Virus record (IMG/VR): IMGVR_UViG_3300036770_007242
DNA from: an uncultured virus (IMG/VR IMGVR_UViG_3300036770_007242)
Taxonomy: Duplodnaviria > Heunggongvirae > Uroviricota > Caudoviricetes
DNA length: 64,000 nucleotides
Strand: one strand, 5' to 3'
Below the pieces are notes generated by a model. The model had not been told where the DNA came from and did no database searches. It saw nothing but the letters and a program-made list of their open reading frames with translations. A program made the translations under genes and the position numbers. Below, piece after piece: positions 4,038-62,001 of this stretch (the stretch's first letter is position 1; each line of letters opens with the position of its first letter).

Positions 4038-5801
4038 TTATCCTTCGTTGTTAATAACAACAACACAATTTGTTGTAAGTAGCAACCCAACAACTGAGCA
4101 AGCATGTTCAATTGCATAACGTTCTACTTTATGGGGGTCAATAATACCTTGTTCAATTAAGTCACAATAAACGTGACGACTTGCATCATATCCTTGACGT
4201 AAACGTTGGTTTAGCAAAACTTCTGCTTTCTTTCCAACGATATCTTCTGGACGGTTTGTGTCTCCAGCAATATCATGAAGAAGACTTACAAGTCTTTGAC
4301 TATCATATGAACGAAGTTGGTTCATAACAACATCTGAACTCTTGCCTGTGTTTTCTACAATAACTCTTAAAGGTTGACGGCAAGCTTCGTATATAACTTT
4401 TGCTCCAGCTATTTCATCTTCGGTTGCAAGTGCTTCGGGAACTTCAGAAGTATGCCGACGAATCAATTCATGACTTGCTATCTCTCTTTGCAGCCATTCT
4501 GAGGCGTAGAAAAGAGCTGTACCACCCCCAGGTAGTATTCCTTCTTGAACAGCCGCTATCGTGGCATTTAAAGCGTCCTCAACACGGTCTTTCTTTTCAA
4601 AGATTTCAACTTCTGTAGAACCACCAACTTTAATAACAGCAATACCTCCAGCTAGCTTTGCAAGACGCTTTTTGGTATTCTCACGCTTTAAATCATCTAA
4701 ACCAACGTTGGCAGTAAGAAGAGTTCTTAATTGCTCAACACGTTGAGAAATAAGTTCCTTGCGTGAACCTGTATCATCACCTACAAGAGTTGTTGAACCT
4801 TTACCAATAATTGCACGCTTGCATTGACCTAAATCCGCAAGAGTTGCATTCTTGATAGACTTCTCTGAACTCGCATCAAAAACTTTTCCACCTGTTACAA
4901 GAGCAATGTCAGACAAAACATCAACACGATTCTCTCCATAACTTGGAGCCTTTACCGCACAAGTATAAAGAACACCTTTCATCTTGTTAACAATAAGAGT
5001 ATGAAGAGCTTCACCTTCAATTTCATCACCAATAATAAGAAGAGGTTTGCTTGCGTTTGCTGCAAGTTCTAGAACAGGTAGAATCTCTTGTAGTGAAGAA
5101 ATCTTTTTGTTGGTGATTAAGATGTAAGGGTCATTAAGTTCTGCGGTCATTTTTTCTTGGTTTGTTACAAAATAAGGACTAACAAACCCAGAATCAAACT
5201 GCATACCTTCTACAACATCTAATGTTGTTTTAACACTCTTAGCTGGTTCAATGGTAATAATTCCATCTTGACCAACCTTTGAGATAGCATTACATAGAAG
5301 TTCACCAATAGATCTATCGCCGTTAGCAGAAATTGTTCCAATGTTAATAATGTCTTCGTCGTTACGCACTGGAATAGCATGTTCTGCCAACCATCCAATA
5401 ACTTTTTTGGTTGCCCAATCCATTCCACGTTTGATTTCAATCGCAGAACGTCCGGTGGCAGTCATCTTAATACCCTGCTTAAGCATAGCATAACCAAGAA
5501 CAGTAGCAGTAGTAGTACCATCTCCAGCCTGTTCATTAGTCTTGCTAGCAATTTCTTTTATTAACTCTGCTCCTAAACTTGGAAGCTTTGAACGTAAGTT
5601 AATACTCTTGGCAACAGTTACACCGTCCTTGGTAATAAGAGGAGCTGTTTTACCATTGTCAATAATAACGTTGTGGCCACTTGGACCCATTGTTGATTTA
5701 ACAGCTTTATAAAGGATTTCAGCACCTTCTAAAAGTTTACTGTGTGCTTCTTGACCAAAAGTAACTTCTTGAACTTGTTCTTGCTCGGTAGGTTTTGTCA
5801 T
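4038..5801 (-). CDS. groEL: phage chaperonin GroEL/Cpn60
   Basis: TMGPSG, ITKDGVTVA, AGDGTTTATV, EGMQFDSG, KAPSYG, RVEDAL, GILPGGG, GIIDP motifs. Confidence 0.97.
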   Translation of the reverse strand: MTKPTEQEQVQEVTFGQEAHSKLLEGAEILYKAVKSTMGPSGHNVIIDNGKTAPLITKDGVTVAKSINLRSKLPSLGAELIKEIASKTNEQAGDGTTTATVLGYAMLKQGIKMTATGRSAIEIKRGMDWATKKVIGWLAEHAIPVRNDEDIINIGTISANGDRSIGELLCNAISKVGQDGIITIEPAKSVKTTLDVVEGMQFDSGFVSPYFVTNQEKMTAELNDPYILITNKKISSLQEILPVLELAANASKPLLIIGDEIEGEALHTLIVNKMKGVLYTCAVKAPSYGENRVDVLSDIALVTGGKVFDASSEKSIKNATLADLGQCKRAIIGKGSTTLVGDDTGSRKELISQRVEQLRTLLTANVGLDDLKRENTKKRLAKLAGGIAVIKVGGSTEVEIFEKKDRVEDALNATIAAVQEGILPGGGTALFYASEWLQREIASHELIRRHTSEVPEALATEDEIAGAKVIYEACRQPLRVIVENTGKSSDVVMNQLRSYDSQRLVSLLHDIAGDTNRPEDIVGKKAEVLLNQRLRQGYDASRHVYCDLIEQGIIDPHKVERYAIEHACSVVGLLLTTNCVVVINNEG

Positions 5802-9085: not shown

Positions 9086-12000
9086 ATGGCTAAAAAAGAA
9101 AAGAGTTTTTATCAGCGACTGACGAGATTATTTCGCAGCGGTCCAGCAATACGTAGAAAGATTCGTGGTCAGGACTATAAAAACTTCTACGACAATCAAG
9201 TAGTTCAAAACAACCTTGGCTATTATGGTGCTGCTGGATTTAAGCGTGAGGCATCTCCATTTTCTGTTATGGGTGCATACGGTATTCTTGATCGTATGTC
9301 TCGTTATGCTGAGTTTGCAGAAATGGAAAACTGCTTGCATGGTGATACAAAGATTGCTGTGCCGGGAGGATATAAAACTCTTAAGCAGCTCACAGAAGAA
9401 TATGGTCTTGAAAAAGAATTTATTGTTTATTCTTATGACCACAATAAAAAAGCGATTGTTCCAGCAGTAGCTCGTCAAGCAAGACATACAACAACAACAC
9501 ATGCTTATCGTGTGGTTTTTGATAACGGTAAAGAAATCGTTGGAACAGAAGACCATCGTTTAATGAAACGTGATGGTACATATTGCGAGATTCGTGATCT
9601 TAAACCCGGTGATGCAATGATGCCTTTTTATCGCCGTTCATTGGTTGGAAAAGAAACAGGTCCAGAACTTCAAGATAACTGTTATCAGTTAATCTATACT
9701 ATGAACAAAGAAGATAGTCCATCTAGATGGATTGCTGAACATAGATTACTGGGCAAGTTTGTAGCTGGTAGATCGCTAGAGTTAAACGAGGTTGTTCATC
9801 ACAAAAACTTTAAAGCCCATGATAATCGTCTAGAAAACTTGGAAATAATGACCGAAACCGATCATCAAGCTTTACACGCAAAAACATTGAACGGCAAAAA
9901 ATGGGACAAAGAAACTAACCATGATTGGATTGCAAAGTTCAAAGAACGTCATTCCGCATGGATGAAAGAAAATAATCCAGCAGAAAGAAAAGATATCAAG
10001 TTTGAAAGAATACTTCAATGGTGTGATGAAAATAGTTTTAACCTTTATGCAGTTGCAAGAGCTTTCGATACAGATATAAACACTATTAAGAGAAAGTTGA
10101 AGACAAAAGGTTTTGAGAACTTTGTGTCTTTTGCAAAAGCTTATTGTTCTGGTTGGAAACCATATAACGGAGAAAATCAAGGGGCAAACAACAATCGTTA
10201 TCTACACGACTTAACTTTTGAAAAAATCTGCAATGCATATTCAAAAGGTTTAAGCCAACGAAATCTTGCCAAACGTTTAAACGTTTCAGTTATTCCAATA
10301 AATGCAAGACTTAAAGAAAATGGGTTTAATAACTGGAAAGAGTTTGCTTCAACCTATGAAAATCTAAAAGTTGTAAGTGTCGAATATTATGGCGTTACAG
10401 ACTTGTATGATATCACTGTTGACGGCTTTAAAAACTTTGCAACCGATTCTTTAATCGCCCATAACACAGCAGACATTGCGACAGCATTAAACGTTTATGC
10501 CGACGAATCTTGTGCCACAGACGAAAATGGTAGAACCTTTCACATTTACAGCGATGTTCCACAAATCCAACGTGCATTAGAAGAACTGTTTTATGACGTA
10601 ATGAATATCGAGTTTAATGCCAGACGTATGGTTCGTAACCTTGTTAAAAACGGTGACTACTTCATGTATGTTGAAGTTGTACCAGACTACGGTGTTATCA
10701 ACGTAGAACCTTTACCAGTAAACGAAGTAGAACGTGAAGAAGGTTTTGATAAGCATGACCCATATGCTGTTAGATTCCGTCTTATCACAAGAGGCGGCAA
10801 GTATCTAGAAAACTGGCAAATGCTACATTTCCGTATTCTTGGCAACGACTTGTTTCTTCCATATGGTACAAGCTTTCTAGAGTCTGCAAGAAGACCTTGG
10901 AGACAGCTAACCATGATGGAAGACAGCATGTTGGTTTACCGTCTTGTACGCTCTCCAGAACGCAGAGTGTTTTATGTAGACGTATCAGCAGTGCATCCAA
11001 ACGATATTCCAAGCTATATGGAAGCTGTTAAAGAGTCTATGCGTGGAGCAAGTGTTATCGAGCAACAAACAGGTCGTCAAGACTTTAGATATAACCCTCT
11101 TGCTATTGATGAAGATTATTTCTTGCCAACCAGACCAAACAATCAAACCAAGATTGAATCCTTGGCTGGAGGACAAAATGCTACAGCTATCGAAGACGTA
11201 GAATATATTCACAAGAAGCTTATTGCTGCTTTGATGGTACCAAAAGCTTATCTTACCTATGATGAAGCTATTTCTTCTAAAGCAACATTAGCTCAAGAAG
11301 ATATTAGGTTTTCTAGAACAGTTGGTCAGTTGCAAAAGATTTTGATTGCAGAACTAAACAAGCTTGCAATGATTCATCTTTATGCGCTTGGATTTTCGGG
11401 TGATGATTTATTGAACTTTGATTTAAAGTTTTCTAATCCATCAACTGTTGCGGTGCAACAAAAACTAGCTCTTATTTCTAGCAAGCTTGAGATTGCAGCC
11501 AAAGCTTTAGAGTTATCAAAAGAAACTGGCTTGCTAAGTTTTAACTACATTCAAACCGAGATTCTTAGCTTGCGCCCAGAACAAATCAATATAATCAAAC
11601 AAGAAGCTCGGCAAGACCAAGTTACAATGGCAGAGCTTAAAAAGATTGCAGAGAATCCTCCGTTTGATAAAAGCATTGACAGTAATATTGACATCTTTGA
11701 CAAAAGCAACTATGAAGTTCCCACTTCACCATACAGCCCAGACAAAAAAGAAGTTCGTAAGCTTGAACAACAAAATCAAGAACAAGAGCAAGAGTATCAA
11801 GCTCGTCGAGCAAAAGAGCGTGAAGAAAAATCTGGGAACAACAGTGGTGCTCCTATACGCTTTAGTCCAACACCCAACCTAGATAAGAGTTTTAGAAAGT
11901 CTAGAAGAAGCAAAGCGTTTACTGGAGACAGGGCACTTGTTATGCCAGACTTCAAAAAAATGTTGGATATCACAAATAATCGTTATGCAAAAGATCCATT

Positions 12001-12241
12001 CGACACAGAATCAATACGCAAGTTTGTGTTAGAAGAATCCGAGATGGAAAAAAGTCTTTTCAACACGAACGACCGTTTGCCATTTGGTTTGACAAAAGAA
12101 ATGCAAACATCGCTTAGAAAGCTTAACGAAGCATTATATCCCAAGCGTGTTGGTTCCGATGTAGAAGTTGTTAACAATACCAAAGAAGACGAAGTTAACG
12201 ACGAATTATTCCTTATAGAAAAAGAGTTGAAATCAGAATAG
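9086..12241 (+). CDS. T4 gp20-like portal protein with intein
   Basis: RYAEFAEME..ALNVYADE, HFR, PYGTSFLE, MEDSMLVYRLVRSPERRVFYVDV, EDYFLP, LAQEDIRF. Confidence 0.95.
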   Translation: MAKKEKSFYQRLTRLFRSGPAIRRKIRGQDYKNFYDNQVVQNNLGYYGAAGFKREASPFSVMGAYGILDRMSRYAEFAEMENCLHGDTKIAVPGGYKTLKQLTEEYGLEKEFIVYSYDHNKKAIVPAVARQARHTTTTHAYRVVFDNGKEIVGTEDHRLMKRDGTYCEIRDLKPGDAMMPFYRRSLVGKETGPELQDNCYQLIYTMNKEDSPSRWIAEHRLLGKFVAGRSLELNEVVHHKNFKAHDNRLENLEIMTETDHQALHAKTLNGKKWDKETNHDWIAKFKERHSAWMKENNPAERKDIKFERILQWCDENSFNLYAVARAFDTDINTIKRKLKTKGFENFVSFAKAYCSGWKPYNGENQGANNNRYLHDLTFEKICNAYSKGLSQRNLAKRLNVSVIPINARLKENGFNNWKEFASTYENLKVVSVEYYGVTDLYDITVDGFKNFATDSLIAHNTADIATALNVYADESCATDENGRTFHIYSDVPQIQRALEELFYDVMNIEFNARRMVRNLVKNGDYFMYVEVVPDYGVINVEPLPVNEVEREEGFDKHDPYAVRFRLITRGGKYLENWQMLHFRILGNDLFLPYGTSFLESARRPWRQLTMMEDSMLVYRLVRSPERRVFYVDVSAVHPNDIPSYMEAVKESMRGASVIEQQTGRQDFRYNPLAIDEDYFLPTRPNNQTKIESLAGGQNATAIEDVEYIHKKLIAALMVPKAYLTYDEAISSKATLAQEDIRFSRTVGQLQKILIAELNKLAMIHLYALGFSGDDLLNFDLKFSNPSTVAVQQKLALISSKLEIAAKALELSKETGLLSFNYIQTEILSLRPEQINIIKQEARQDQVTMAELKKIAENPPFDKSIDSNIDIFDKSNYEVPTSPYSPDKKEVRKLEQQNQEQEQEYQARRAKEREEKSGNNSGAPIRFSPTPNLDKSFRKSRRSKAFTGDRALVMPDFKKMLDITNNRYAKDPFDTESIRKFVLEESEMEKSLFNTNDRLPFGLTKEMQTSLRKLNEALYPKRVGSDVEVVNNTKEDEVNDELFLIEKELKSE
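9332..10465 (+). mobile_element. 378-aa intein with HNH endonuclease domain, inside portal
   Basis: N-terminal CLHGDT, block B GTEDHRL, HNH core EHRL..VVHHKN...DNRLENL, block F/G YDITV...NF...AHN followed by +1 Thr. Confidence 0.93.
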
Positions 12242-19624: not shown

Positions 19625-20548
19625 ATGGAACTAATCTTTCATGATAAAGGCAATGAAGGTGGTATATACAAGATTCTAAATCTACAAAATGGTAGGATTT
19701 ATATCGGGTCTACATATCGTTTTAAGGATAGAGCAAGGGGACATAAAACTGAACTAGAAGCTGGAAGGCACCTAAATAAGTTTTTGCAAAATGATTATAA
19801 CAAGTGTGGATCTGAGGTTTTCTTATTTGAAGTTATTGAGACTGTGATGGGTGATAGGAAAACCAGAGTCGAGCGAGAGCAGTTTCATATCGATCAATGG
19901 TATGATAATCAAAAGAACTGCTACAACTTAGTTCCATATGCAATGGATAGTCGTGGTGGTTCACGCAATAAGAAACAAATCGATCCATTAACGGATGGAC
20001 GATGTAAACCATTTAATGAGGAGCGTCGTGCAAAACACACAGCCAAGTTAAAAGAAGTGTGGCAAACTCCCGAACTAAAAGAACAATCCAGACAAAATGC
20101 ATATAAGCAATGGCAAGAACAATCTCAGAACAACATAACTGTAACCAACAAAGAGACTGGTGAAAAGGTTGTTATAAGCGGTTCTGTTCGACAGTTTTGT
20201 TTGGATAGAGGATTAAGCTATAAAGCTTTTCATCAGCTAGTAAAAGGCAAACTAAAGAGTTCTGGAGGGTGGTTTGTAGGAGAACAAGAACCAGAATACA
20301 CTAGTAAAAAAGGACAAGTTAGAAAACCTTTAAGTAAAGAGCATAAAGAAAAGATAAGCGGTGGCAAATACGTAGGATTAAAACTTGTTAACCATGAAGG
20401 TTTAGAGATTGTATTAACTTCAAATGTCAAGCAACAATGTAAAGACTTAGGCTTGCCATATTCAACGTTGATCAAGGTTTTAAACGGAAAGTGTAAATCT
20501 GTGTTTGGATATGCTCTAGCAATAGTGACCTCTCTTGATATGGGGTAA
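19625..20548 (+). mobile_element. free-standing GIY-YIG homing endonuclease gene
   Basis: GIYKILN...YIGS, R, E, YN catalytic pattern, NUMOD-like repeats. Last 9 codons resemble the MCP C-terminus. Confidence 0.9.
20519..20548 (+). pseudogene. relic copy of the MCP 3' end
   Basis: AIVTSLDMG versus MCP ATVTCLDMS. GTGACCTCTCTTGATATG versus GTGACCTGCCTCGATATG (15/18). Confidence 0.75.
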
Positions 20549-27431: not shown

Positions 27432-27521
27432 ATGGCAAGATTATTCATAGGATTGAGAGAAGTCCAGTTTATTAATGATCTTGCAACTTCCAACCTTTGT
27501 GCGATTTGTTTTTGCCGCTGA
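27432..27521 (+). pseudogene. orphaned 5' stub of the gp14-like gene
   Basis: GGAG RBS, then MARLFIGLREVQFINDLA (identical to the first 18 aa of 28525), then an out-of-context tail and TGA. Confidence 0.92.
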
Positions 27522-28359
27522 TTACATTTCTTAGATGAGTGGGATGTAGGGCATGTAGTTTGCAAAAGGCACTGAGACATACAATTTGCCTATATATTTC
27601 GCCAGTATTAGAAACTAGAGGTCTATCAGATAAGTCGTATATTTTGGCATTGTGGTTATCCATTCCGCTACACTTACCTTTTCTATTTTGTTTCATTTTA
27701 TTAATTGACTCTTGTTTGTGTTTCATACCATAAGTTGGGCTAAGTTCTCCTGCTTTACCAAATAAAGGATGTTTGTCTCCTGCCAATAATCCTTTATGAG
27801 ACTCAGAGAGTTTTTTTCTAGTTTCTTCCGAGATAGTATGTCCAGTTTGAATATTCCGAAGTTTTTCTTTAAGGGCTTCTCCTTTTTCGGTTTGGTAAAA
27901 CCTCTTCTTTGATTCACTGATATTAATCTTGTCTTCTTTAGTGAAACTATAGTTCCTACCACCGGTTATGACGTTGCAAACTTTGCTGCCATATATGAGT
28001 TTAAATTCATTTATATGAAACTGCTCTCGCTCGCACAACAACTTACCAATTTCAGCTTCGTTTGTGGCCACTGACGTATCAACAACTTCTACAATAGAAA
28101 ATCTCAAAAAATCGACGTTACCAGTTTCTAGGTAATGTTTCTGCACCGAACGTTTGAGTTTTATGTTTGTCCCTGATTTTCTTTGTTTTTGTATTGGTTT
28201 CAAAAGATCATACTTGTAGTTTAACCATCTCTCTCTTATTGTTCTTCTTGTCTGTCCAATGTAAATCTTGCCGGAAATCGTATTTTCGATTTTATAGATC
28301 ACATTCTTGGTTCTTGAATGTTGTGCGCCCCCATATCTGTAATCAAACTGCCATTCCAT
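27472..28359 (-). mobile_element. free-standing GIY-YIG homing endonuclease gene
   Basis: VIYKIEN...IYIGQT, REQFHI, NUMOD3 HTISEETRKKLSES, terminal KSHKGW. Confidence 0.9.
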
Positions 28360-28524
28360 ATTTCATACCTTTTTTTGGATACCCCTATCTTGGAGTTAAC
28401 AATAGATAGTGTGATTGTTTTGGTTTCATTTAGATGTTTTTTATTCCTGTTGACTCTAAAGCTTTTGATAAAATCCTTATAAACAAGCATTTGGCAAAAT
28501 CTAAAAACGAACATATATATTTTC

Positions 28525-29244
28525 ATGGCAAGATTATTCATAGGATTGAGAGAAGTACAGTTTATCAATGATTTGGCCAAGGAGTTCATAAAGGATGTTG
28601 CAGGCCAAACAATAAACTACTTTCCTGTATCTTCCATTAAAAGTTCAGTTCATAAGATATACAACGAAGCTGTTCAAAAGATTTTTGAGAATCCTATATC
28701 GGTTCCTGCTCTTGTAGGAATGCCAGAGTATTCAAGCAAAACAACAAACTTCGGTCCAGATATTGAAGCTAAGATTGAAGTGTTGATTCAATACAAAGAT
28801 TTACAAGATAAAGGTATTGTGTTAAGCGAAGGTGATTTCTTTTCTTATGACGACATTCTTTATGAAATTTTAACGGTTGTCAATGCTGGAAAAAACATCT
28901 TTGGTTTAGCTGAATACAACACAGCATGGAAAATCACAGCTCGCAGTGCAAGACTTAATCAGCTTGACTTGCCAAACCTTCCAAATCCAAGACTTGCTCC
29001 AGATGACATTCAAACTGTTTTTGAGCAACAGCGTGGTTTACCTTTAACAGATGATGGTAAGCAAACCGGAGATGTTCGTGAAATGAGAGAACGTCTTGGT
29101 CAAGACATGGCTCCTATTGCTCTTGGTACTGGTCAGCGCAAAGTTGAACCAAACGTAGGAGAAGAAGGTGATTTTATTGAGGGCAAAACACCAAGCTTTA
29201 ACAACGATCCATTGCCTGCCAAAAAAGGAATATATGATGAATGA
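28525..29244 (+). CDS. neck/head-closure protein (T4 gp14-like)
   Basis: YF......H.IYNE, FG......, EGDFF...YEI. Lies between gp13-like and tail terminator genes. Confidence 0.75.
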   Translation: MARLFIGLREVQFINDLAKEFIKDVAGQTINYFPVSSIKSSVHKIYNEAVQKIFENPISVPALVGMPEYSSKTTNFGPDIEAKIEVLIQYKDLQDKGIVLSEGDFFSYDDILYEILTVVNAGKNIFGLAEYNTAWKITARSARLNQLDLPNLPNPRLAPDDIQTVFEQQRGLPLTDDGKQTGDVREMRERLGQDMAPIALGTGQRKVEPNVGEEGDFIEGKTPSFNNDPLPAKKGIYDE

Positions 29245-44798: not shown

Positions 44799-45062
44799 TT
44801 AGATTATTTCTAAGTTTTCTGGTTGTGCTGCTTCGATGATAAAGCGTTGGTGTAGTGGTTCAAAAGTTAGCACTAGAGGAACATGCCAGGCTGGATGTGT
44901 TTCTCTACGCTTGGATTCGTTAATTGCATTTTGAAATGCAATTTGCATAAAGTGTTGAATGCGTGGAGTTAGTGGTTCTCCCAAAAACGTTTCATTTAAT
45001 ACGTTGTTATAGTAATCAATGATTTTATACCAATAGTTTCTTTGAACCTGAATTTTGCTCAT
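44799..45062 (-). CDS. hypothetical protein
   Basis: 87 aa coupled to purA. Confidence 0.65.
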   Translation of the reverse strand: MSKIQVQRNYWYKIIDYYNNVLNETFLGEPLTPRIQHFMQIAFQNAINESKRRETHPAWHVPLVLTFEPLHQRFIIEAAQPENLEII

Positions 45063-46183
45063 AACACAATCATATCCTCTCTTTCTGGAGATGTTGAGAT
45101 ATAAGTAACTGGAGCCATGGCAACTGCTGCAATATGTTGTATATAATTCAATGCATCCTGTGGCAACAATGTTTTATCACGCAAACCTTTTGTTGGACGA
45201 TTCCAGCCATTCCAATCACAATAAACAATCTCTTCACGGCTATTTTGAAAACCTCTATAACCTACAGGAATCATCTTAAATTCATCTAGTACATCTAGCT
45301 TGGTAATCACAACTTCATCAACTCCATTAAGTTCGCATGCTCGACGTAGATCATTATAATCTAGCCAACCACAACGACGGTTTCTTCCTGTTGTTGTGCC
45401 ATATTCTCCACCTACTTCACGAAGCTTATCACCAATCTCATTCTTCTGTTCTGTTGGAAATGGTCCCTCTCCAACCCGTGTTGTATATGCCTTAACAACA
45501 CCAATAACCTTACGTAGAGATTTATGGTTTAATCCTGTTCCTGTAAGTGCTCCACCAATAGTACAGTTGGAACTTGTGACATATGGATACGTGCCATGAT
45601 CAATATCAAGAAGAGTGCCTTGTGCACCCTCTAGAAGAATATTAGCGCCGCTTTTAACAGCCATTTGCAGTAAGCTAGTAGTGTCAGATACAAAAGGCTT
45701 AATAACGTCTAGAGTGCCTTCTGGATATAGAGAATCCAACTCACCTTTTGCAAGGTTTTCCATACGCAACCCTGTGCGATGCATTTTAGCTGCATATGTG
45801 GGACCAATACCTCGTCCAGTTGTTCCTACCTTTTTACCTGTTGCTTGATCTTCTGTGCGAGCCGTAGGAAGAATAACGTGAGCAGCATGAGAAATAAACA
45901 AACGACCAACAAGACTCGACGCACCTACTTGATTGATTTCTTTAGCAAGTTGTTCTGGATCAATCACACAACCATTCCCAATAACGTTGTTGACATGTGG
46001 ATGGAGAACTCCAGAAGGAAGAGCATGAACAGCAATACGGTGTCCATTTACCACAAGCGTATGTCCTGCGTTGTTACCTCCATGAAACCTTACAACATAT
46101 TCGTAGTTTTTGGCAAGATAGTCAACAACCTTGCCTTTCCCTTCGTCCCCGTAGGATAGCCCTAACACTACATCAGCTGGCAT
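45059..46183 (-). CDS. purA: adenylosuccinate synthetase
   Basis: GDEGKGK, GGNNAGHT, GTTGRGIGP, EGAQG..LD..HGTYPYVTSS, TRVG.GPFPTE, GTTTGR.RRCGW, TKLDVL. AGGAGA RBS before ATG 46183. Confidence 0.95.
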   Translation of the reverse strand: MPADVVLGLSYGDEGKGKVVDYLAKNYEYVVRFHGGNNAGHTLVVNGHRIAVHALPSGVLHPHVNNVIGNGCVIDPEQLAKEINQVGASSLVGRLFISHAAHVILPTARTEDQATGKKVGTTGRGIGPTYAAKMHRTGLRMENLAKGELDSLYPEGTLDVIKPFVSDTTSLLQMAVKSGANILLEGAQGTLLDIDHGTYPYVTSSNCTIGGALTGTGLNHKSLRKVIGVVKAYTTRVGEGPFPTEQKNEIGDKLREVGGEYGTTTGRNRRCGWLDYNDLRRACELNGVDEVVITKLDVLDEFKMIPVGYRGFQNSREEIVYCDWNGWNRPTKGLRDKTLLPQDALNYIQHIAAVAMAPVTYISTSPEREDMIVL

Positions 46184-46288
46184 AATATATTCTCCTTGTA
46201 TAAACACGTTAACACAAGATTAGGTAAAGATAAAAGGATTATATGTGGTGTGGAAGATAACCAAGAGAAGGAAGCGATACTTAATGTT

Positions 46289-47366: not shown

Positions 47367-48212
47367 ATGACCACAAAAATATTAGACAAAGAACGTTTGC
47401 AAAAAGTTATTCAAGAAGCTGTTGGTAATGTTTTGGGCAACAGTGGAGTATTGGAGAAGCCTGCGGTGAAACAATTTGTTGCTGCTGGTAAAAAGTTATT
47501 AAAAGAAGCTGTTATCATTATGCCAAGATCTTTTGTTATGAAAGGTGATGTTCAGTCACCTACCACAAAAGAAAATCATGAAAAGCTTTACAAGAGTTAC
47601 GTTGATAGCTTCAACAAAATCTCTAGCAAGCTTGATACAGTTCCAAAAACAGATGCAGATAATAACAATGATAGTGAATATCGCAGACTAAAGCAAGACG
47701 AAGTTCATAACATGAACGGCGTTAAGCTGCATGAGTTATACTTCACCAACTCTGGGGATGTGAACTCTGAGATTCGTGCAGACAGCACACCATTCATGAG
47801 ATTAAGCCGTGATTGGGGAACCTTTGATCAATGGCAGCTAGACTTTCGTGCATGTGGCATGTCAGCTAGAGAAGGTTGGGCAATCTGTTATTTTGATCCA
47901 TTTAAGCAACAATATTTCAATTGCTTTATAGAAGGTCACACAATCAATCTTCCTCTTATGGCTATTCCTGTGTTGGTAGTTGACACATGGCATCACGCAT
48001 GGTTTTATGATTATCCTGGCGAGAAGATGGAATATCTTAACAAGTCAATGCGTGAGATTAACTGGAATGTGGTTGAAATGAGAATGCTTGCAGCAGAAAT
48101 GGCTAAGTTGCATCAACTTTATGCGATTCAGCCAGTTATTTCAAACGAGAAAGAAAAAACTGTTGCTCTTCCAGAAATAATGCCACCTGTAGAAGTTCTA
48201 GGAGCCCGCTGA
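47367..48212 (+). CDS. Fe/Mn superoxide dismutase-like protein with N-terminal extension
   Basis: H..LY..YV, LHELYF, GWA, P.LVVDTWHHAW..DY, INW. Confidence 0.8.
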   Translation: MTTKILDKERLQKVIQEAVGNVLGNSGVLEKPAVKQFVAAGKKLLKEAVIIMPRSFVMKGDVQSPTTKENHEKLYKSYVDSFNKISSKLDTVPKTDADNNNDSEYRRLKQDEVHNMNGVKLHELYFTNSGDVNSEIRADSTPFMRLSRDWGTFDQWQLDFRACGMSAREGWAICYFDPFKQQYFNCFIEGHTINLPLMAIPVLVVDTWHHAWFYDYPGEKMEYLNKSMREINWNVVEMRMLAAEMAKLHQLYAIQPVISNEKEKTVALPEIMPPVEVLGAR

Positions 48213-51273: not shown

Positions 51274-51309
51274 TTCATATTAGCCTTTTACTTATAGTTG
51301 GAGGTTTTT

Positions 51310-51378
51310 ATGAACAAGTTTACGAATGATACCAAAGGACTTTCAACAGTTTATTCCTCTAGCGTCCAACCTTTGTAA
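51310..51378 (+). pseudogene. orphaned 5' stub of Flp pilin gene
   Basis: TACTTA + GGAGG + MNKFTNDTKGLSTV, then an out-of-context tail and TAA. Confidence 0.85.
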
Positions 51379-52247
51379 GTTTTTATTATTCCAGACAAAA
51401 GTCTATAGAAACTACTTCTTTCTAAATTGTTTTCTATCATAAATCTTACAAGATTTATTCCTTCTACTTCTATTCGTTTGTGGTCGGAAACGAAAACAAA
51501 TACTTTGTCACCATAACGCTTTCTTGCTTTTGTTTCGCTTATTTTTTGTTTCTGGCCATCAGACATAGTTTTACCAAAGTTTGGATTTTTTTCACCTAAC
51601 CTGGAGAAACTCATCTTTTCTTTCGTAGTAGCGTTTGCTTTTTTCCCAATCCTAGATTGACGTAATTTTTCCTTAGTTTCTTCCGATATATTTTTTTTGG
51701 CTTCAACAAGTTTTTGTATATGTTCTGGTGTTTTAGGTTTCCTTAGTTTTTCTTTTGCTTCTTCTGACATTGGCACACCAATATGGGCGGCACGTATCTT
51801 TTCTTTTGTTTCTTCTGTTCTGGGCACACCTACTCTTGCAGCAATTGAGGCTTTTGTTGCCTTGGACATATCTTTGCCTTTACGCTGTTTGCTCCATAAA
51901 GCTTTTGTTTCATCAGATGGTTTAAAACCAAGGGTATTACCAGCCTTCTCGCAAATATTATAGCATTGTTTTTTGCCATCAAAAAACTTCTCTAGATAAT
52001 ATTGCTCTCTAACCAATAACTGTTTTTTATCAACCATCTCAATAATTTCATAAGTTAACGGTTCCTGCCCATATTCTTTTTTGCAAGAGTTATAATCATT
52101 TTGCAAATATTGATTTGGATGACGATTATGGAACAAATCAGATTGATGAGCTGCCCATCGCTTCATAAAGTCAATGGTACTTCCTATGTATATACGACCA
52201 TTGAACTTATTTGTTATCTTATAGATGCCAGATTTTTTCATGTTCAT
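51351..52247 (-). mobile_element. free-standing GIY-YIG homing endonuclease gene
   Basis: SGIYKITN...IYIGS, REQYY, YN, several NUMOD3 EETKEK repeats, terminal YKGW. Confidence 0.92.
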
Positions 52248-52312
52248 GTGTTATATATAGTTGTTCTTTGCAGTTGTTGCATAGAAATACACTAAAAAAA
52301 AGGAGTTCTAAG

Positions 52313-52477
52313 ATGAAAAAACTTGCAAAAGACACTAAAGGACTTTCAACAATTGAATATGTGATTATTCTCATTTTGATTGCTGTTGTTGGCATTACGG
52401 CATGGAGAACGTTTGGAAACACTGTTGTAACCAAAATTAACTCTGGTAACAGCCAAGTAAGTGGTTTGGGTCCATGA
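52313..52477 (+). CDS. flp: Flp/Tad (type IVb/c) prepilin
   Basis: AGGAG RBS, 54 aa: MKKLAKDTKG^LSTIEYVIILILIAVVGITAWRTFG. G-1, E+5, Y+6 and hydrophobic helix. Confidence 0.88.
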   Translation: MKKLAKDTKGLSTIEYVIILILIAVVGITAWRTFGNTVVTKINSGNSQVSGLGP

Positions 52478-52538: not shown

Positions 52539-52976
52539 ATGTCAGTTTCAACAACAATCGATTCAGTATCAGGTGTAGTTTCAACAGTAGACGGTGCTGG
52601 CGCATCAAACCCCGGCACAGTAACTATTGCTGGTCTTCAAGCTCCTGTTGTTGCTCTCACAACAGCAGCAACACTTTCAGCAGCTCAAGCAGGTGCATTT
52701 ACATTTGGCACAGGTGTTTCTGCCGTAACATACGTAATGCCACTTGCCTCAAGCTGTCCCGGTTCAGTGTTTACATTTCGTTCACTAACAGCACAAGCTA
52801 ATGCTCTTACTTGCTCACAAGAAGCAAACGGAACAAAGGCGTTCACCGATGGAACATCAAATGGTTCAAAGGTTGCTGTAGCAAACGTAATTGGCAGCTC
52901 AGTGTCCCTTCTATCAGACGGTAAGAGCTTCCTTGTAATCGGAAAAAGCGGTTCACTTACCTTCTCAGGTACCTGA
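52539..52976 (+). CDS. S/T/G/A-rich putative virion protein
   Basis: 145 aa, AGGAGG RBS, highly expressed-type codon usage. Confidence 0.7.
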   Translation: MSVSTTIDSVSGVVSTVDGAGASNPGTVTIAGLQAPVVALTTAATLSAAQAGAFTFGTGVSAVTYVMPLASSCPGSVFTFRSLTAQANALTCSQEANGTKAFTDGTSNGSKVAVANVIGSSVSLLSDGKSFLVIGKSGSLTFSGT

Positions 52977-52999: not shown

Positions 53000-53031
53000 A
53001 AACCTCCTGCTAGTTATCTGGCAGGAGGTTT
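53000..53031 (+). promoter_or_regulatory. hairpin sequestering the endolysin RBS, with late-promoter motif at the loop
   Basis: AAACCTCCTGCTAG-TTAT-CTGGCAGGAGGTTT. TAGTTA at 53011-53016, ATG at 53036. Confidence 0.8.
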
Positions 53032-57752: not shown

Positions 57753-58349
57753 ATGGCCACATTTAAACAAGCTTTTACTAAACATGAATCTAATCGCCTT
57801 ATGGAAGCACGACTAAGCCTTCTAGAAAAAGGCGTATATCCTTTTGACGTATTTCTTAAGGAAAGCTCTGAAGCTATTAATGCAGCAGAGAAAATAGAAC
57901 AACTAGAAGAAGTTGCCAATCGTTTCAAAAACCATGTACCAACTTTGTATATGTTTGTTCAACAAAACTCAACTGTTCTTCTGGAAGGTAAAGCTCAACC
58001 AACAGCAATCAAAGCTGCAATGATAAACTATACTTTTGTTTGTGAGTCATTAAACAAGTGTGTTAATGAAGCAGTTAAACTAATGTCACAAAAGGTAGAT
58101 GCAAACAAAACTTTGCATTCTGTATACAAGCACGATTCAATTCAACTTCTAGAGTTTTGTATTAAGAAATCACAAGCATACAAACTCATGGAAGGCAACG
58201 TTAATCCAATTGTTAAAACACTTGCAACAGAGCTTGCAAAGCTTCCAATGCGTGACCTTAAAGCTCTTTGTGAGAGCGTTCCAGCAATGCGTTTATATGT
58301 TTCAAACGAAACATACAATCAACTAACACAAACAGTTTTAGGCGGCTGA
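57753..58349 (+). CDS. hypothetical protein with several (L)xE sites
   Basis: 198 aa, TACTTA + GGAG. Confidence 0.7.
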   Translation: MATFKQAFTKHESNRLMEARLSLLEKGVYPFDVFLKESSEAINAAEKIEQLEEVANRFKNHVPTLYMFVQQNSTVLLEGKAQPTAIKAAMINYTFVCESLNKCVNEAVKLMSQKVDANKTLHSVYKHDSIQLLEFCIKKSQAYKLMEGNVNPIVKTLATELAKLPMRDLKALCESVPAMRLYVSNETYNQLTQTVLGG

Positions 58350-59708
58350 AATAATTGTCCCACAAGCTGTGAAATAACTTCCAGCTAAACTAGCACCGTA
58401 AACCCCCGCCAAATATAAACCAATACTTGAAGCTGGGTTGTTATTCCTAATCATATACTTGTGAGCTTCTTGCCAGTCCTTTGCTAATCCCTCTAAATCG
58501 ATTTCTAATGGCTTGCAAAAGCCATAGGTATAGGCAGTCCTACAAGCTCTAATTGCGTTATCTACACAGGCTTTAAAACGGTTTGCAGAGCCTCTGGGAA
58601 TGCTAATCTTAACAATGTGAGCAAGTAAGTTTTGAATTCGTTTGGTTGTTAAGTCTGCAAGGTCAGAAACTTCCGTGCTTTCTGCTTGTTCCTTGCGACG
58701 ATTGTTTAGATAGTTTAAATGCACAAGAACATTTCCTCTTGTTTTGTTGTTGTGAATTGTAAGAACTTTTTCGGTAAGACTTACCTTTTCTACAACCGGA
58801 AGCTCGTCGTAGTTAACATAAGTTAGAATCTCTCCCTTAAGAGTAGAAACAACATCACACCCAGATACAACAGCAATATCATTAAGCATGTTCAGTGCTT
58901 CCAATGATTGCTCTAAACGTATTGGCATGATATCAAAACCTCCCCTAGAGTTGTTTGCATGAATCGTCGCAATAACTTCTTCAGAAAATCCTTGAGCAAT
59001 AAACACCAAAGGAATCTTGGTTTCAAAACTTTTTGATAACACTTTATCTAACTCTGAAACCTTTTCTACCATGCCGTCAACTAACAATACTTTTGCGTTG
59101 CTTCTTAACCATGTACCAAAAGCTGGTATAAATCCTTTGAATGGATACACCTTGAAGTTATATCCAAACTGTAACTCAACTATAGTATTGGGTTGATCGT
59201 GTTCATCGAACACAATATTTCCTTCTATCCCAGCTAGTCTTGTTGCTTCCTTAACCGCTGAAGCCATATACAAGTCATCAGTAACTTGGTCAATAAGTTC
59301 ATTTATTTGTGATGCGTTAGCTGGATAACAAGAACGTAATATTGTTTGAAGGTACTTGGTTCCTTCTTCTTGGTTATGTTCCACTACTTCTTTATGTGTT
59401 AGGTTTTCATTTTTAATATTCTGATATGCATGAGAGATAAATGAACGTAGGAATAAGTTGCTTGTGTTATGGCATTTAAGTTCTAGTTGATAACAGGTTT
59501 GGATTAGTTCTTGGTAAAGCATACGTTCCCAAGAATTTGTTGGAGTTAAAAGTTTAGCAACAAGTTGGTAAGAATCTTTTTGCAGGTATGTTTGATTTTC
59601 TGTTGTTATAGCCAGCGTGATTTTGCTTAGGTTTTTTTCTAGCTTTTCAAGGCACGCAACCAAGTTTTTTTGTGTGTTATTTTTCTCGATAAAAGTGTTG
59701 TGTTGCAT
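58338..59708 (-). CDS. degenerate GroEL-like paralogue
   Basis: AG.EG.I, ELQFGYNF, VLLVDG.VEKVSEL, PLVFIA, LNDIAVVSG. GDGTTT absent. Confidence 0.75.
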   Translation of the reverse strand: MQHNTFIEKNNTQKNLVACLEKLEKNLSKITLAITTENQTYLQKDSYQLVAKLLTPTNSWERMLYQELIQTCYQLELKCHNTSNLFLRSFISHAYQNIKNENLTHKEVVEHNQEEGTKYLQTILRSCYPANASQINELIDQVTDDLYMASAVKEATRLAGIEGNIVFDEHDQPNTIVELQFGYNFKVYPFKGFIPAFGTWLRSNAKVLLVDGMVEKVSELDKVLSKSFETKIPLVFIAQGFSEEVIATIHANNSRGGFDIMPIRLEQSLEALNMLNDIAVVSGCDVVSTLKGEILTYVNYDELPVVEKVSLTEKVLTIHNNKTRGNVLVHLNYLNNRRKEQAESTEVSDLADLTTKRIQNLLAHIVKISIPRGSANRFKACVDNAIRACRTAYTYGFCKPLEIDLEGLAKDWQEAHKYMIRNNNPASSIGLYLAGVYGASLAGSYFTACGTIISAA

Positions 59709-60597: not shown

Positions 60598-62001
60598 ATG
60601 AAAAAAACTTACATTCTCGATACAAACGTTTTGCTTTCTGATAGTAACAGCTTGTTTGGATTTGAAGAACATGACTTGGTTCTTCCTCTTATAGTTCTAG
60701 AGGAGCTTGACCGTCATAAAGATCGTCAAGATGAAGTTGGTAGAAATGCTCGTGAAGTAGTACGTAAGCTTGCAGACCTCACCAAAATCAACAAAGACTT
60801 TAAAGCAGGTGTACCTCTTGGTAAAAACCTGGGAACACTAAGAATCCTATCTATTGAAGATATCTTCTCAGAGAACGGTAGTGTAACACTTCATAAACTT
60901 CCAATGGAAATGGAAGCAAGAAAAAGCGGTGACAACACTATTGCTCAATTCTGTGTAAATTACATTGAAAAACACACCGACGTACAAATTGTTCTTGTAA
61001 CAAGAGACACAATCCTTCGTCTAAAAGCTCAAGCTCTTGGTATCGTTTGTGAAGATTATCGTAAGTTCAATGTAGCGACATCAGTTAACAGTCTTTACTC
61101 TGGTGTTAAAACTATTGAGCGTGAGGATATTGTTGTTGCTGATTTCTACAAAAACAACGAACAGTTCTTCTTGCCAAAAGATATTGAAGAAGAACTATAT
61201 CCAAACCAATTTCTTGTATTGAAGAATGGCCAACAATCTGGTATGGCAAGATTTATTACCAAAGGTGAACCAGTACTTCCAGTTGGAGAAATCAAAAGCA
61301 AGATTCAACCAAGAAACAAGGAGCAAGAATTTGCTCGTGAACTTCTTTTTGATGAAAGTGTTAAGCTTGTAACTCTTGCTGGTAAATCTGGTTGCGGTAA
61401 AACTCTTCTTGCTATTGATGCTGGACTAGAACAAGTATTGAACCAACGCAAATATCGTTCACTTGTTATTTGTCGTCCAGTTATGCCTGTAGGAAAAGAT
61501 ATTGGATTCCTTCCCGGCGATTTAAACGAGAAGCTAGAGCCTTGGCTGGCACCTATCAAGGATAACCTACGCTTTCTTTTAGGAGCCTCAGAACCCACCA
61601 AAGAATCGTCTACAGGCACACGTAGAAAAAAGCTTGCAGAACCAACAGTAAAATTTGATGAACAAGTTCTTCAAAGCTACTTTGACGAAGGTATTATTGA
61701 AGTTCAAGCCATGACATTTATTCGTGGTCGTTCAATCGCTAATGCTTATATCATTGTAGATGAAGCACAGAACACCAACCTACACGAGATTAAAACCATT
61801 CTTACCCGTGTGGGAGAGAACACAAAGATTGTTCTAACAGGTGACCTTGAACAGATTGACAGCACATATGTTGACTCTGTAAGCAACGGTCTTTCTATTG
61901 CGATTGAAAGATTTAAGTCTCAAAAGATTTCCGGTCACGTTACCTTCCTCAAAGGCGAGAGAAGTTTGCTTGCAACAATTGCATCGGAAATTCTTCTATA
62001 G
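60598..62001 (+). CDS. phoH: PIN-domain PhoH-like ATPase
   Basis: ILDTNVL..EELD..D PIN domain, GKSGCGKT, GFLPG, RGRS, DEAQN, GD..QID. Confidence 0.93.
   Translation: MKKTYILDTNVLLSDSNSLFGFEEHDLVLPLIVLEELDRHKDRQDEVGRNAREVVRKLADLTKINKDFKAGVPLGKNLGTLRILSIEDIFSENGSVTLHKLPMEMEARKSGDNTIAQFCVNYIEKHTDVQIVLVTRDTILRLKAQALGIVCEDYRKFNVATSVNSLYSGVKTIEREDIVVADFYKNNEQFFLPKDIEEELYPNQFLVLKNGQQSGMARFITKGEPVLPVGEIKSKIQPRNKEQEFARELLFDESVKLVTLAGKSGCGKTLLAIDAGLEQVLNQRKYRSLVICRPVMPVGKDIGFLPGDLNEKLEPWLAPIKDNLRFLLGASEPTKESSTGTRRKKLAEPTVKFDEQVLQSYFDEGIIEVQAMTFIRGRSIANAYIIVDEAQNTNLHEIKTILTRVGENTKIVLTGDLEQIDSTYVDSVSNGLSIAIERFKSQKISGHVTFLKGERSLLATIASEILL

Follow-up and report, generated by a model that had tools for sequence, protein, structure and literature searches.

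A probable homing cassette with a GIY-YIG nuclease supplies a replacement start to a Flp pilin gene in an uncultured phage

The 64-kb window analysed here (the whole stretch of 64,000 nucleotides) is the first part of a 78-kb virus contig, whose T4-like genes include those for the portal, the major head protein, the head-tail adaptor and the tail tube. Near-identical DNA (at least half of the contig's words) is carried by 19 sequencing runs, which where labelled derive from freshwater, lagoon, aquaculture and subsurface environments; the contig may derive from two of them. Relatives of the phage reach 260 kb at an estimated completeness of about 70%, which makes it a jumbo-size myophage.

The pilin locus consists of a short stub of a pilin start, an antisense GIY-YIG nuclease gene and a working prepilin gene with its own start (Table 1). 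The product of the working gene resembles the Flp/Fap pilins of Tad pili in its short basic leader ending in Gly, Glu+5 and Tyr+6, a hydrophobic helix and a length below 90 aa; its match to PF04964 (E 3.9e-5, 23.8 bits) lies below the curated cut-off of 32.2, and it matches Caulobacter PilA (PDB 8u1k) at E 0.018. The stub, starting at the ATG at 51310, encodes a 10-residue leader plus mature residues +1 to +4, ending in Val, and its frame continues for eight codons past this Val into the cassette, to a TAA at 51376-51378.

Table 1. Coordinates of the pilin-gene cassette and of the second cassette in the window.
Feature	Position	Strand	Remark
TACTTATA, putative original pilin promoter	51289..51296	+	TAHTTATW member; probably late-type
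GGAGG ribosome site of original pilin start	51300..51304	+	identical in empty allele L015
Stub, displaced original first 14 pilin codons	51310..51351	+	41/42 nt equal to L015 gene start
15-bp direct repeat, left copy	51334..51348	+	
15-bp direct repeat, right copy	52337..52351	+	inside replacement start
Cassette, 1003 bp	51352..52354		with the cassette left out, flanks align gap-free to L015 over 1712 nt (7 mismatches)
GIY-YIG/NUMOD3 endonuclease gene, 298 aa	51351..52247	-	intact
TATATATA	52252..52259	-	one mismatch to TAHTTATW; 4 nt before nuclease ATG
AAGGAG ribosome site of replacement start	52300..52305	+	
Replacement first 14 codons, cassette-borne	52313..52354	+	last codon ATT (Ile +4)
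Working Flp (Tad) prepilin gene, 54 aa	52313..52477	+	body from 52355 identical to empty allele
Second cassette of same design	27432..28578		
Second-cassette stub, 18 codons	27432..27485		
Second-cassette GIY-YIG gene	27472..28359		antisense; ends inside stub
Second-cassette replacement start of conserved 239-aa gene	28525		between head-tail adaptor and tail sheath genes

The layout confirms the observations behind the original prediction, which had been made from the sequence of this stretch. The 15-mer AAAGGACTTTCAACA is shared exactly by the stub and the working start at a spacing of 1003, the stub retains TACTTATA, GGAGG and ATG, the break falls at codon +4, directly before Glu+5 and Tyr+6, one base is common to the Val codon of the stub (51349-51351) and the stop codon of the nuclease (51351-51353, minus strand), and the palindrome TATATATA is present where it had been noted. 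The 15-mer sits within an in-frame 42-nt repeat (33/42 identical), and the base that follows it differs between the copies, giving GTT (Val) in the stub and ATT (Ile) downstream. Outside the nuclease and the leaders, the cassette holds only 65 nt. Of 1000 dinucleotide-shuffled versions of the 2.4-kb region, 10 contained an exact repeat of at least 15 nt, so that the repeat by itself is only modestly unusual and the comparative data carry the case.

Scans with the pilin and its two flanking proteins yielded 27 loci; for the count of lineages, those that repeated the same contig or shared an identical flank gene were merged. The predicted insertion of a nuclease cassette was borne out by locus L015, in which the pilin gene is uninterrupted and begins with the stub leader, and whose flanks are 99.6% identical to those of the window. 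The existence of this empty allele removes chance as the source of the repeat, and the match of its flanks and of the stub defines the cassette (to within one base) and identifies the stub as the displaced original start. The left edge carries the same tolerance of one base, the four other filled alleles diverging after ACA GT. The uninterrupted protein of L015 type (P0075), with which the stub agrees, is on record on 15 contigs.

The site is fixed and its occupancy optional: five filled lineages (the window, the L001 group, L021, L022 and L023) are all broken at the same codon, at which four empty lineages (L015; L003/L018/L019/L020; L004; L005/L006/L026) carry an intact pilin. The pilin is missing from the site in three loci (L008, L009 and L025), and likewise from G003 over 241 kb, while two loci (L014 and L024) were uninformative. 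The contigs of L022 and L023 end within the nuclease gene, leaving three complete filled alleles (window, L001 and L021), two of which have 90% identical nuclease genes. In L001, L021, L022 and L023, the nuclease frame enters the stub, its stop being the reverse of the stub's Ser codon. The replacement leaders (n=3) are alike at 31-34 of 42 nt mutually and at 28-35 of 42 nt to native leaders; they do not cluster, so the leader is not visibly co-travelling with the nuclease as one clade. No additional lineage, filled or empty, came out of pattern scans of viral contigs, L150 was rejected as a further lineage because it proved to be a chance match, and a nuclease-based scan gave only distant relatives among the matches listed.

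The nuclease contains a GIY-YIG domain (PF01541; E 1.5e-8, 35.3 bits against a cut-off of 22.6) and C-terminal NUMOD3 DNA-binding modules (PF07460; E 1.1e-12, 48.1 bits against 20.4), and it matches a PHROG homing endonuclease (E 3e-39) as well as the I-TevI catalytic domain (E 9e-10; PDB 1mk0 and 1ln0, the I-TevI / I-BmoI domain). When aligned to I-TevI, the GIY and YIG motifs, Arg30, Glu81 and Asn97 are in place. It shares with I-TevI and I-BmoI the N-terminal position of the catalytic domain, and differs from them in the absence of a group I intron, in a C-terminal part made of NUMOD3 repeats and in its predicted pilin-gene target. A group I intron was rejected on the negative Rfam result (no intron match near the gathering score and one chance hit, E 0.35) and on the spacer of 65 nt. 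The dN/dS of the nuclease is 0.10-0.14 in all three pairs, and the gene is intact and under purifying selection.

Comparison of nuclease and flank genes indicates movement between lineages. The nuclease genes of L021 and L023 are identical over 599/599 nt while their flank genes agree at 191/240 (79.6%), which points to recent homing; the L022 nuclease is identical to both at 184/190, with flanks at 80%. Conversely, the flank genes of the window and L015 are identical at 240/240 and the cassette is present in the window only. The flank-gene tree left five of its eight inner branches open, and the case for lateral spread therefore rests on the pairwise identities. The cassette is a recently mobile, intron-free and probably homing element that replaces the start of a gene, for which a target base, the sharing of a promoter and a route of excision are proposed below.

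The whole is best explained by a start-replacing cassette that is likely to home and whose nuclease is predicted to cut empty alleles near codon +4 (probability about 0.85), and we regard both the layout of the cassette and its spread as well supported. The antisense GIY-YIG gene in codon +4 is accompanied by a new ribosome site and recoded first 14 codons, which keeps the pilin frame whole. During co-infection, the nuclease would cut the Val allele and repair would copy the cassette in; the filled allele would be spared, its stub lacking the downstream half of the site and its rebuilt start having A for G at +4. The cost may be small because the swapped part is mostly leader, which the prepilin peptidase would remove. 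The pilin would still be transcribed from the stub promoter across the antisense nuclease gene, and recombination in the 15-bp repeat could drop the cassette to produce an element-free Ile allele.

Codon +4 is ATT in all three complete filled alleles and a Val codon in 9/9 empty loci and 5/5 stubs, and Val is also found at +4 in all of the 15 bacterial pilins compared (the best 15 of at least 22 loci). Filled alleles are not alone in having Ile at +4: it is present in 10 of 79 homologous proteins (seen for the most part as protein sequence), nine of which have short leaders of 9-10 residues, and the other Ile +4 pilin proteins are P0001, P0013, P0026, P0048, P0076 and P0078-P0080. One run contains a leader resembling that of P0076 behind a native-type ribosome site. 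Cutting by I-BmoI depends on one critical G-C pair at the cut site, as stated in the accessible part of PMC3161791, and by analogy the G-to-A change from Val to Ile is plausible as a predicted immunity change. That the base at codon +4 determines cleavage has about even odds. In the empty site of L015, codons +2 to +5 lie in an interrupted palindrome, TTCAAC-A-GTTGAA, the arms of which are shortened by the Ile codon.

In a 70-nt contig (runs X5 and X9, from one sample; window 51294-51348), the stub leads directly into ATT GAA TAT, a form that was not seen in the other six of the eight runs compared. In the X5/X9 sample, depth was about 3 for the joined form, 5.5-6.9 for the filled form and 9.5-13.5 for the shared flanks. 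The contig, which comes from one sample as contigs only and has 15 letters beyond the repeat, may be a library chimera. It carries G at 51324, as does the window, where the filled form of the same sample has A, and this private SNP argues for a separate haplotype. The data suggest an element-free Ile haplotype in one sample, as expected from recombination in the 15-bp repeat. A natural gene drive with a built-in exit, in which one uncuttable base would change Val to Ile at +4 of a host-mimicking phage pilin and the repeats would then permit clean self-removal, is a tentative extension of the main reading that we suspect goes too far. If true, earlier rounds of homing could be read from Ile at +4 in phage pilins as from a scar, and antisense cassettes that replace a start would represent a general intron-free nuclease lifestyle in phage genes.

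Three other explanations were weighed. In the first, the cassette would have been inserted once, long ago, with duplication of its target, and then passed on vertically without active homing and occasionally lost by recombination between the repeats, which would make the empty alleles excision products; this is consistent with the direct repeat that flanks the cassette and with the joined form in one sample. Recombination within the repeat, however, yields exactly the element-free ATT product, so L015 (GTT) cannot arise in this way, and all nine empty loci have a Val codon. Nuclease genes that are identical at all 599 nt beside flank genes at 79.6% likewise misfit vertical descent. This scenario is very improbable, being largely refuted by the Val codon that L015 carries and by the identity between L021 and L023. 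A genuine homing element with its target elsewhere in the flank, comparable with T4 seg, would make Ile +4 a neutral feature of the donor allele that supplied the replacement start. In favour of this, free-standing GIY-YIG enzymes of T4 cut in neighbouring genes (PMC2988022, Table 1, in the portion available), and Ile pilins with short leaders are widespread. All five filled lineages are nonetheless broken within one codon, and stubs and pilin bodies track the recipient lineage up to the junction, which fits a cut close by; a remote target is unlikely.

The original prediction spoke of two alternative leader peptides. If both were used, the stub would be joined to the pilin body by self-splicing, ribosome bypass or programmed DNA excision, and two prepilin forms would result. 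In favour of this, all five stubs retain their ATG, frame and purine-rich ribosome site, the Thr codon ACA ends both repeats, and predicted folds of L001 and L021 allow the spacer block GCAGTTGT, kept in 3/3 filled alleles, to pair with ACAAUUG at the right junction. Against a working choice of leaders, the stub reaches the pilin body only after cassette loss, and the joined form that was observed is DNA, with its own SNP. No Rfam family came near its gathering score, no RNA structure stood out at the stub, spacer or replacement start (fold z-scores -1.3 to +0.2), and a ribozyme core would not fit into the 65 nt outside the nuclease and leaders. No recombinase is encoded in the cassette, the downstream start is served by a separate ribosome site, and the conservation of the stubs is explained by recent arrival of the cassette in each recipient (41/42 nt to L015). 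We consider the use of both leaders extremely improbable, and the start-replacing homing cassette remains the preferred reading.

The motif TAHTTATW, which was picked after some of its sites had been seen, has 11 of its 17 genome hits within 130 nt upstream of a same-strand start, compared with a background of 7.1%, and is likely a late-type promoter. In L001 and L021, the minus strand carries TACTTATA 4 nt ahead of the nuclease ATG, and the plus strand has no match. The TATATATA of the window, which occurs only once in the 78-kb contig, corresponds to this site apart from one change, and from its sequence and position is likely a nuclease promoter giving a nearly leaderless mRNA. The earlier suggestion that this palindrome serves as a shared two-way promoter does not stand, since TATATATA is not conserved in L001 or L021. 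TAHTTATW is absent from the plus strand of the spacer in all complete filled alleles, and because the cassette lacks a plus-strand promoter motif the pilin may borrow the stub promoter; to transcription from there through the antisense nuclease gene, predicted from motif positions, we give about even odds. A sigma-70 scan found four sites against 6.3 expected, none of them on the plus strand at either pilin start. In the single RNA run (X20), coverage was confined to 52552-52650.

An autorepression operator resembling the target was rejected, the best 15-nt matches (10-11/15) being reached by 89-182 of 200 shuffles. A CAGTTG core is common to the spacer and the empty site. Downstream of the pilin, a strong hairpin of 14 pairs with a T tail (window 53000-53031) follows a 145-aa gene and likely ends its transcript.

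The same design recurs in the window at a conserved 239-aa gene (Table 1), where the stub is identical in protein to the start of the gene. Among 19 related loci, L131 has the same cassette and 17 have no stub; in L132 the nuclease and replacement start are present and the contig ends before the stub position. The stub and the replacement copy in the window are equal in their first 32 nt and at 49/54 nt overall, and the stub of L131 differs at 10/54, which suggests gene conversion between the two copies. A 3' version is present at the neighbouring amidase gene of two relatives (L005:3298-5220 and L026:1437-3357), where a whole gene with a divergent tail is followed by an antisense GIY-YIG gene (29% identical to the nuclease of the pilin cassette and preceded by TACTTATA) and by a copy of codons 185-270, the end of which matches the empty L006 (485/508 nt with flank).

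Wider scans indicate that the end-replacing design is not the rule for GIY-YIG genes. A flanking-duplication score of at least 50 was reached by 0/65 distinct GIY-YIG ORFs from at least 80 distant loci, and a score of at least 45 by two; the pilin cassette itself scores only 49, so that short duplications are missed and the sensitivity of the scan is low. Among the four related contigs G000-G003, two of five testable GIY-YIG genes (seven found) scored for a flanking duplication, both of them in the window, compared with 9/248 control ORFs at 45. A third GIY-YIG gene of the window (19625-20548), on the sense strand and directly behind the major capsid gene, has no such duplication.

The nearest described design in the literature searched is that of fungal mitochondrial gene ends. 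According to the accessible part of PMC3630166, mobile endonuclease ORFs (mORFs) of fungal mitochondria bring substitute C-termini with them and give rise to gene hybrids that are expressed, including Allomyces macrogynus atp6 and Glomus sp. atp6, atp9 (with a GIY-YIG nuclease), cox2 and nad3. As far as that account goes, the two systems share an intronless nuclease in a coding gene, a partly recoded copy of the gene end, a whole hybrid gene and a native end stranded about 1 kb away. The published mORFs substitute the C-terminus and share transcription with the host gene, whereas in the phage cassette the nuclease is antisense and the 5' end is replaced together with its ribosome site. Also unlike the mORFs as described there, the part swapped in the pilin consists for the most part of a leader predicted to be cleaved off, and alleles of three kinds (empty, filled and putatively element-free with Ile) stand side by side. 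Because the 5' end of a phage gene is replaced and not a mitochondrial C-terminus, the cassette works like an mORF without being a member in the narrow sense.

T4-type free-standing nucleases, as presented in the available portion of PMC2988022, lie between genes (seg) or split the host protein, as with Aeh1 mobE in nrdA and T4 mobA in gene 60/39, each of which leaves a protein of two chains. The pilin cassette resembles the seg genes in being a phage GIY-YIG gene free of intron and intein, oriented antisense as segD is, and the same source holds that carrying expression signals needed by a neighbouring gene favours retention. It differs from seg and from mobE and mobA in lying inside a gene that is rebuilt as one chain. 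End replacement is not described in the part of PMC10448857 consulted, and no phage nuclease that brings a replacement gene start was found in a literature search covering few subscription papers. Next to introns and inteins, supplying a new gene start would give homing nucleases a third means of residing inside an unbroken phage gene. The naive empty, filled and element-free alleles form a natural test set differing at one base of the likely target, with which target and immunity of a new GIY-YIG enzyme are directly testable. With genes of this kind, annotation pipelines would overlook both the stub and the fact that the gene is a hybrid.

The pilin itself suggests a host. Over window 52343-52474, compared with L109-L123, the mature pilin agrees at 42/43 residues with the pilins of the Myxococcota MAGs L109 and L110, and that of the empty allele at 43/43. 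The phage and host pilin DNA share 95/132 nt, the phage codons being AT-rich and the MAGs 70% GC. In L110, the pilin gene is followed by an A24 prepilin peptidase gene and a TadE-like gene. Other phage lineages best match other host pilin variants, as if each lineage tracked the pilin of its own host. The expectation of a stable, selected pilin gene in the clade held in part: dN/dS is 0.04-0.24 in 23 of 28 computable phage pairs, indicating purifying selection, and the gene is missing from L008, L009, L025 and G003, so that the pilin is under selection in the phages that have it but is an accessory gene of the clade.

The pilin differs from bacterial Flp/Fap pilins in being phage-encoded with AT-rich codons, and in the partial relatives searched (35-70% complete) neither a prepilin peptidase (two records) nor a pilus ATPase (three records) was found. 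No cultured phage in a collection of 50,697 records encodes a similar pilin, and no phage-encoded Flp pilin was found in the literature search, which had the coverage given above. The identity with pilins of uncultured Myxococcota is a pointer to the host and suggests that the phage makes use of Tad pili, the putative pilin likely being an authentic subunit fed to the host Tad machine. A Tad-like complex is used by Myxococcus for prey killing, as reported in the accessible part of PMC12288465.

Several ORFs of the window (4038-5801, 45059-46207, 47367-48212, 58338-59708 and 60598-62001) encode what we take from their translations to be host-like genes, namely two chaperonin-like, one adenylosuccinate synthase-like, one superoxide dismutase-like and one PhoH-like. 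The portal protein (1051 aa, window 9086-12241) has internal HNH-nuclease hits at residues ~97-290, a region that is likely an intein with an endonuclease.
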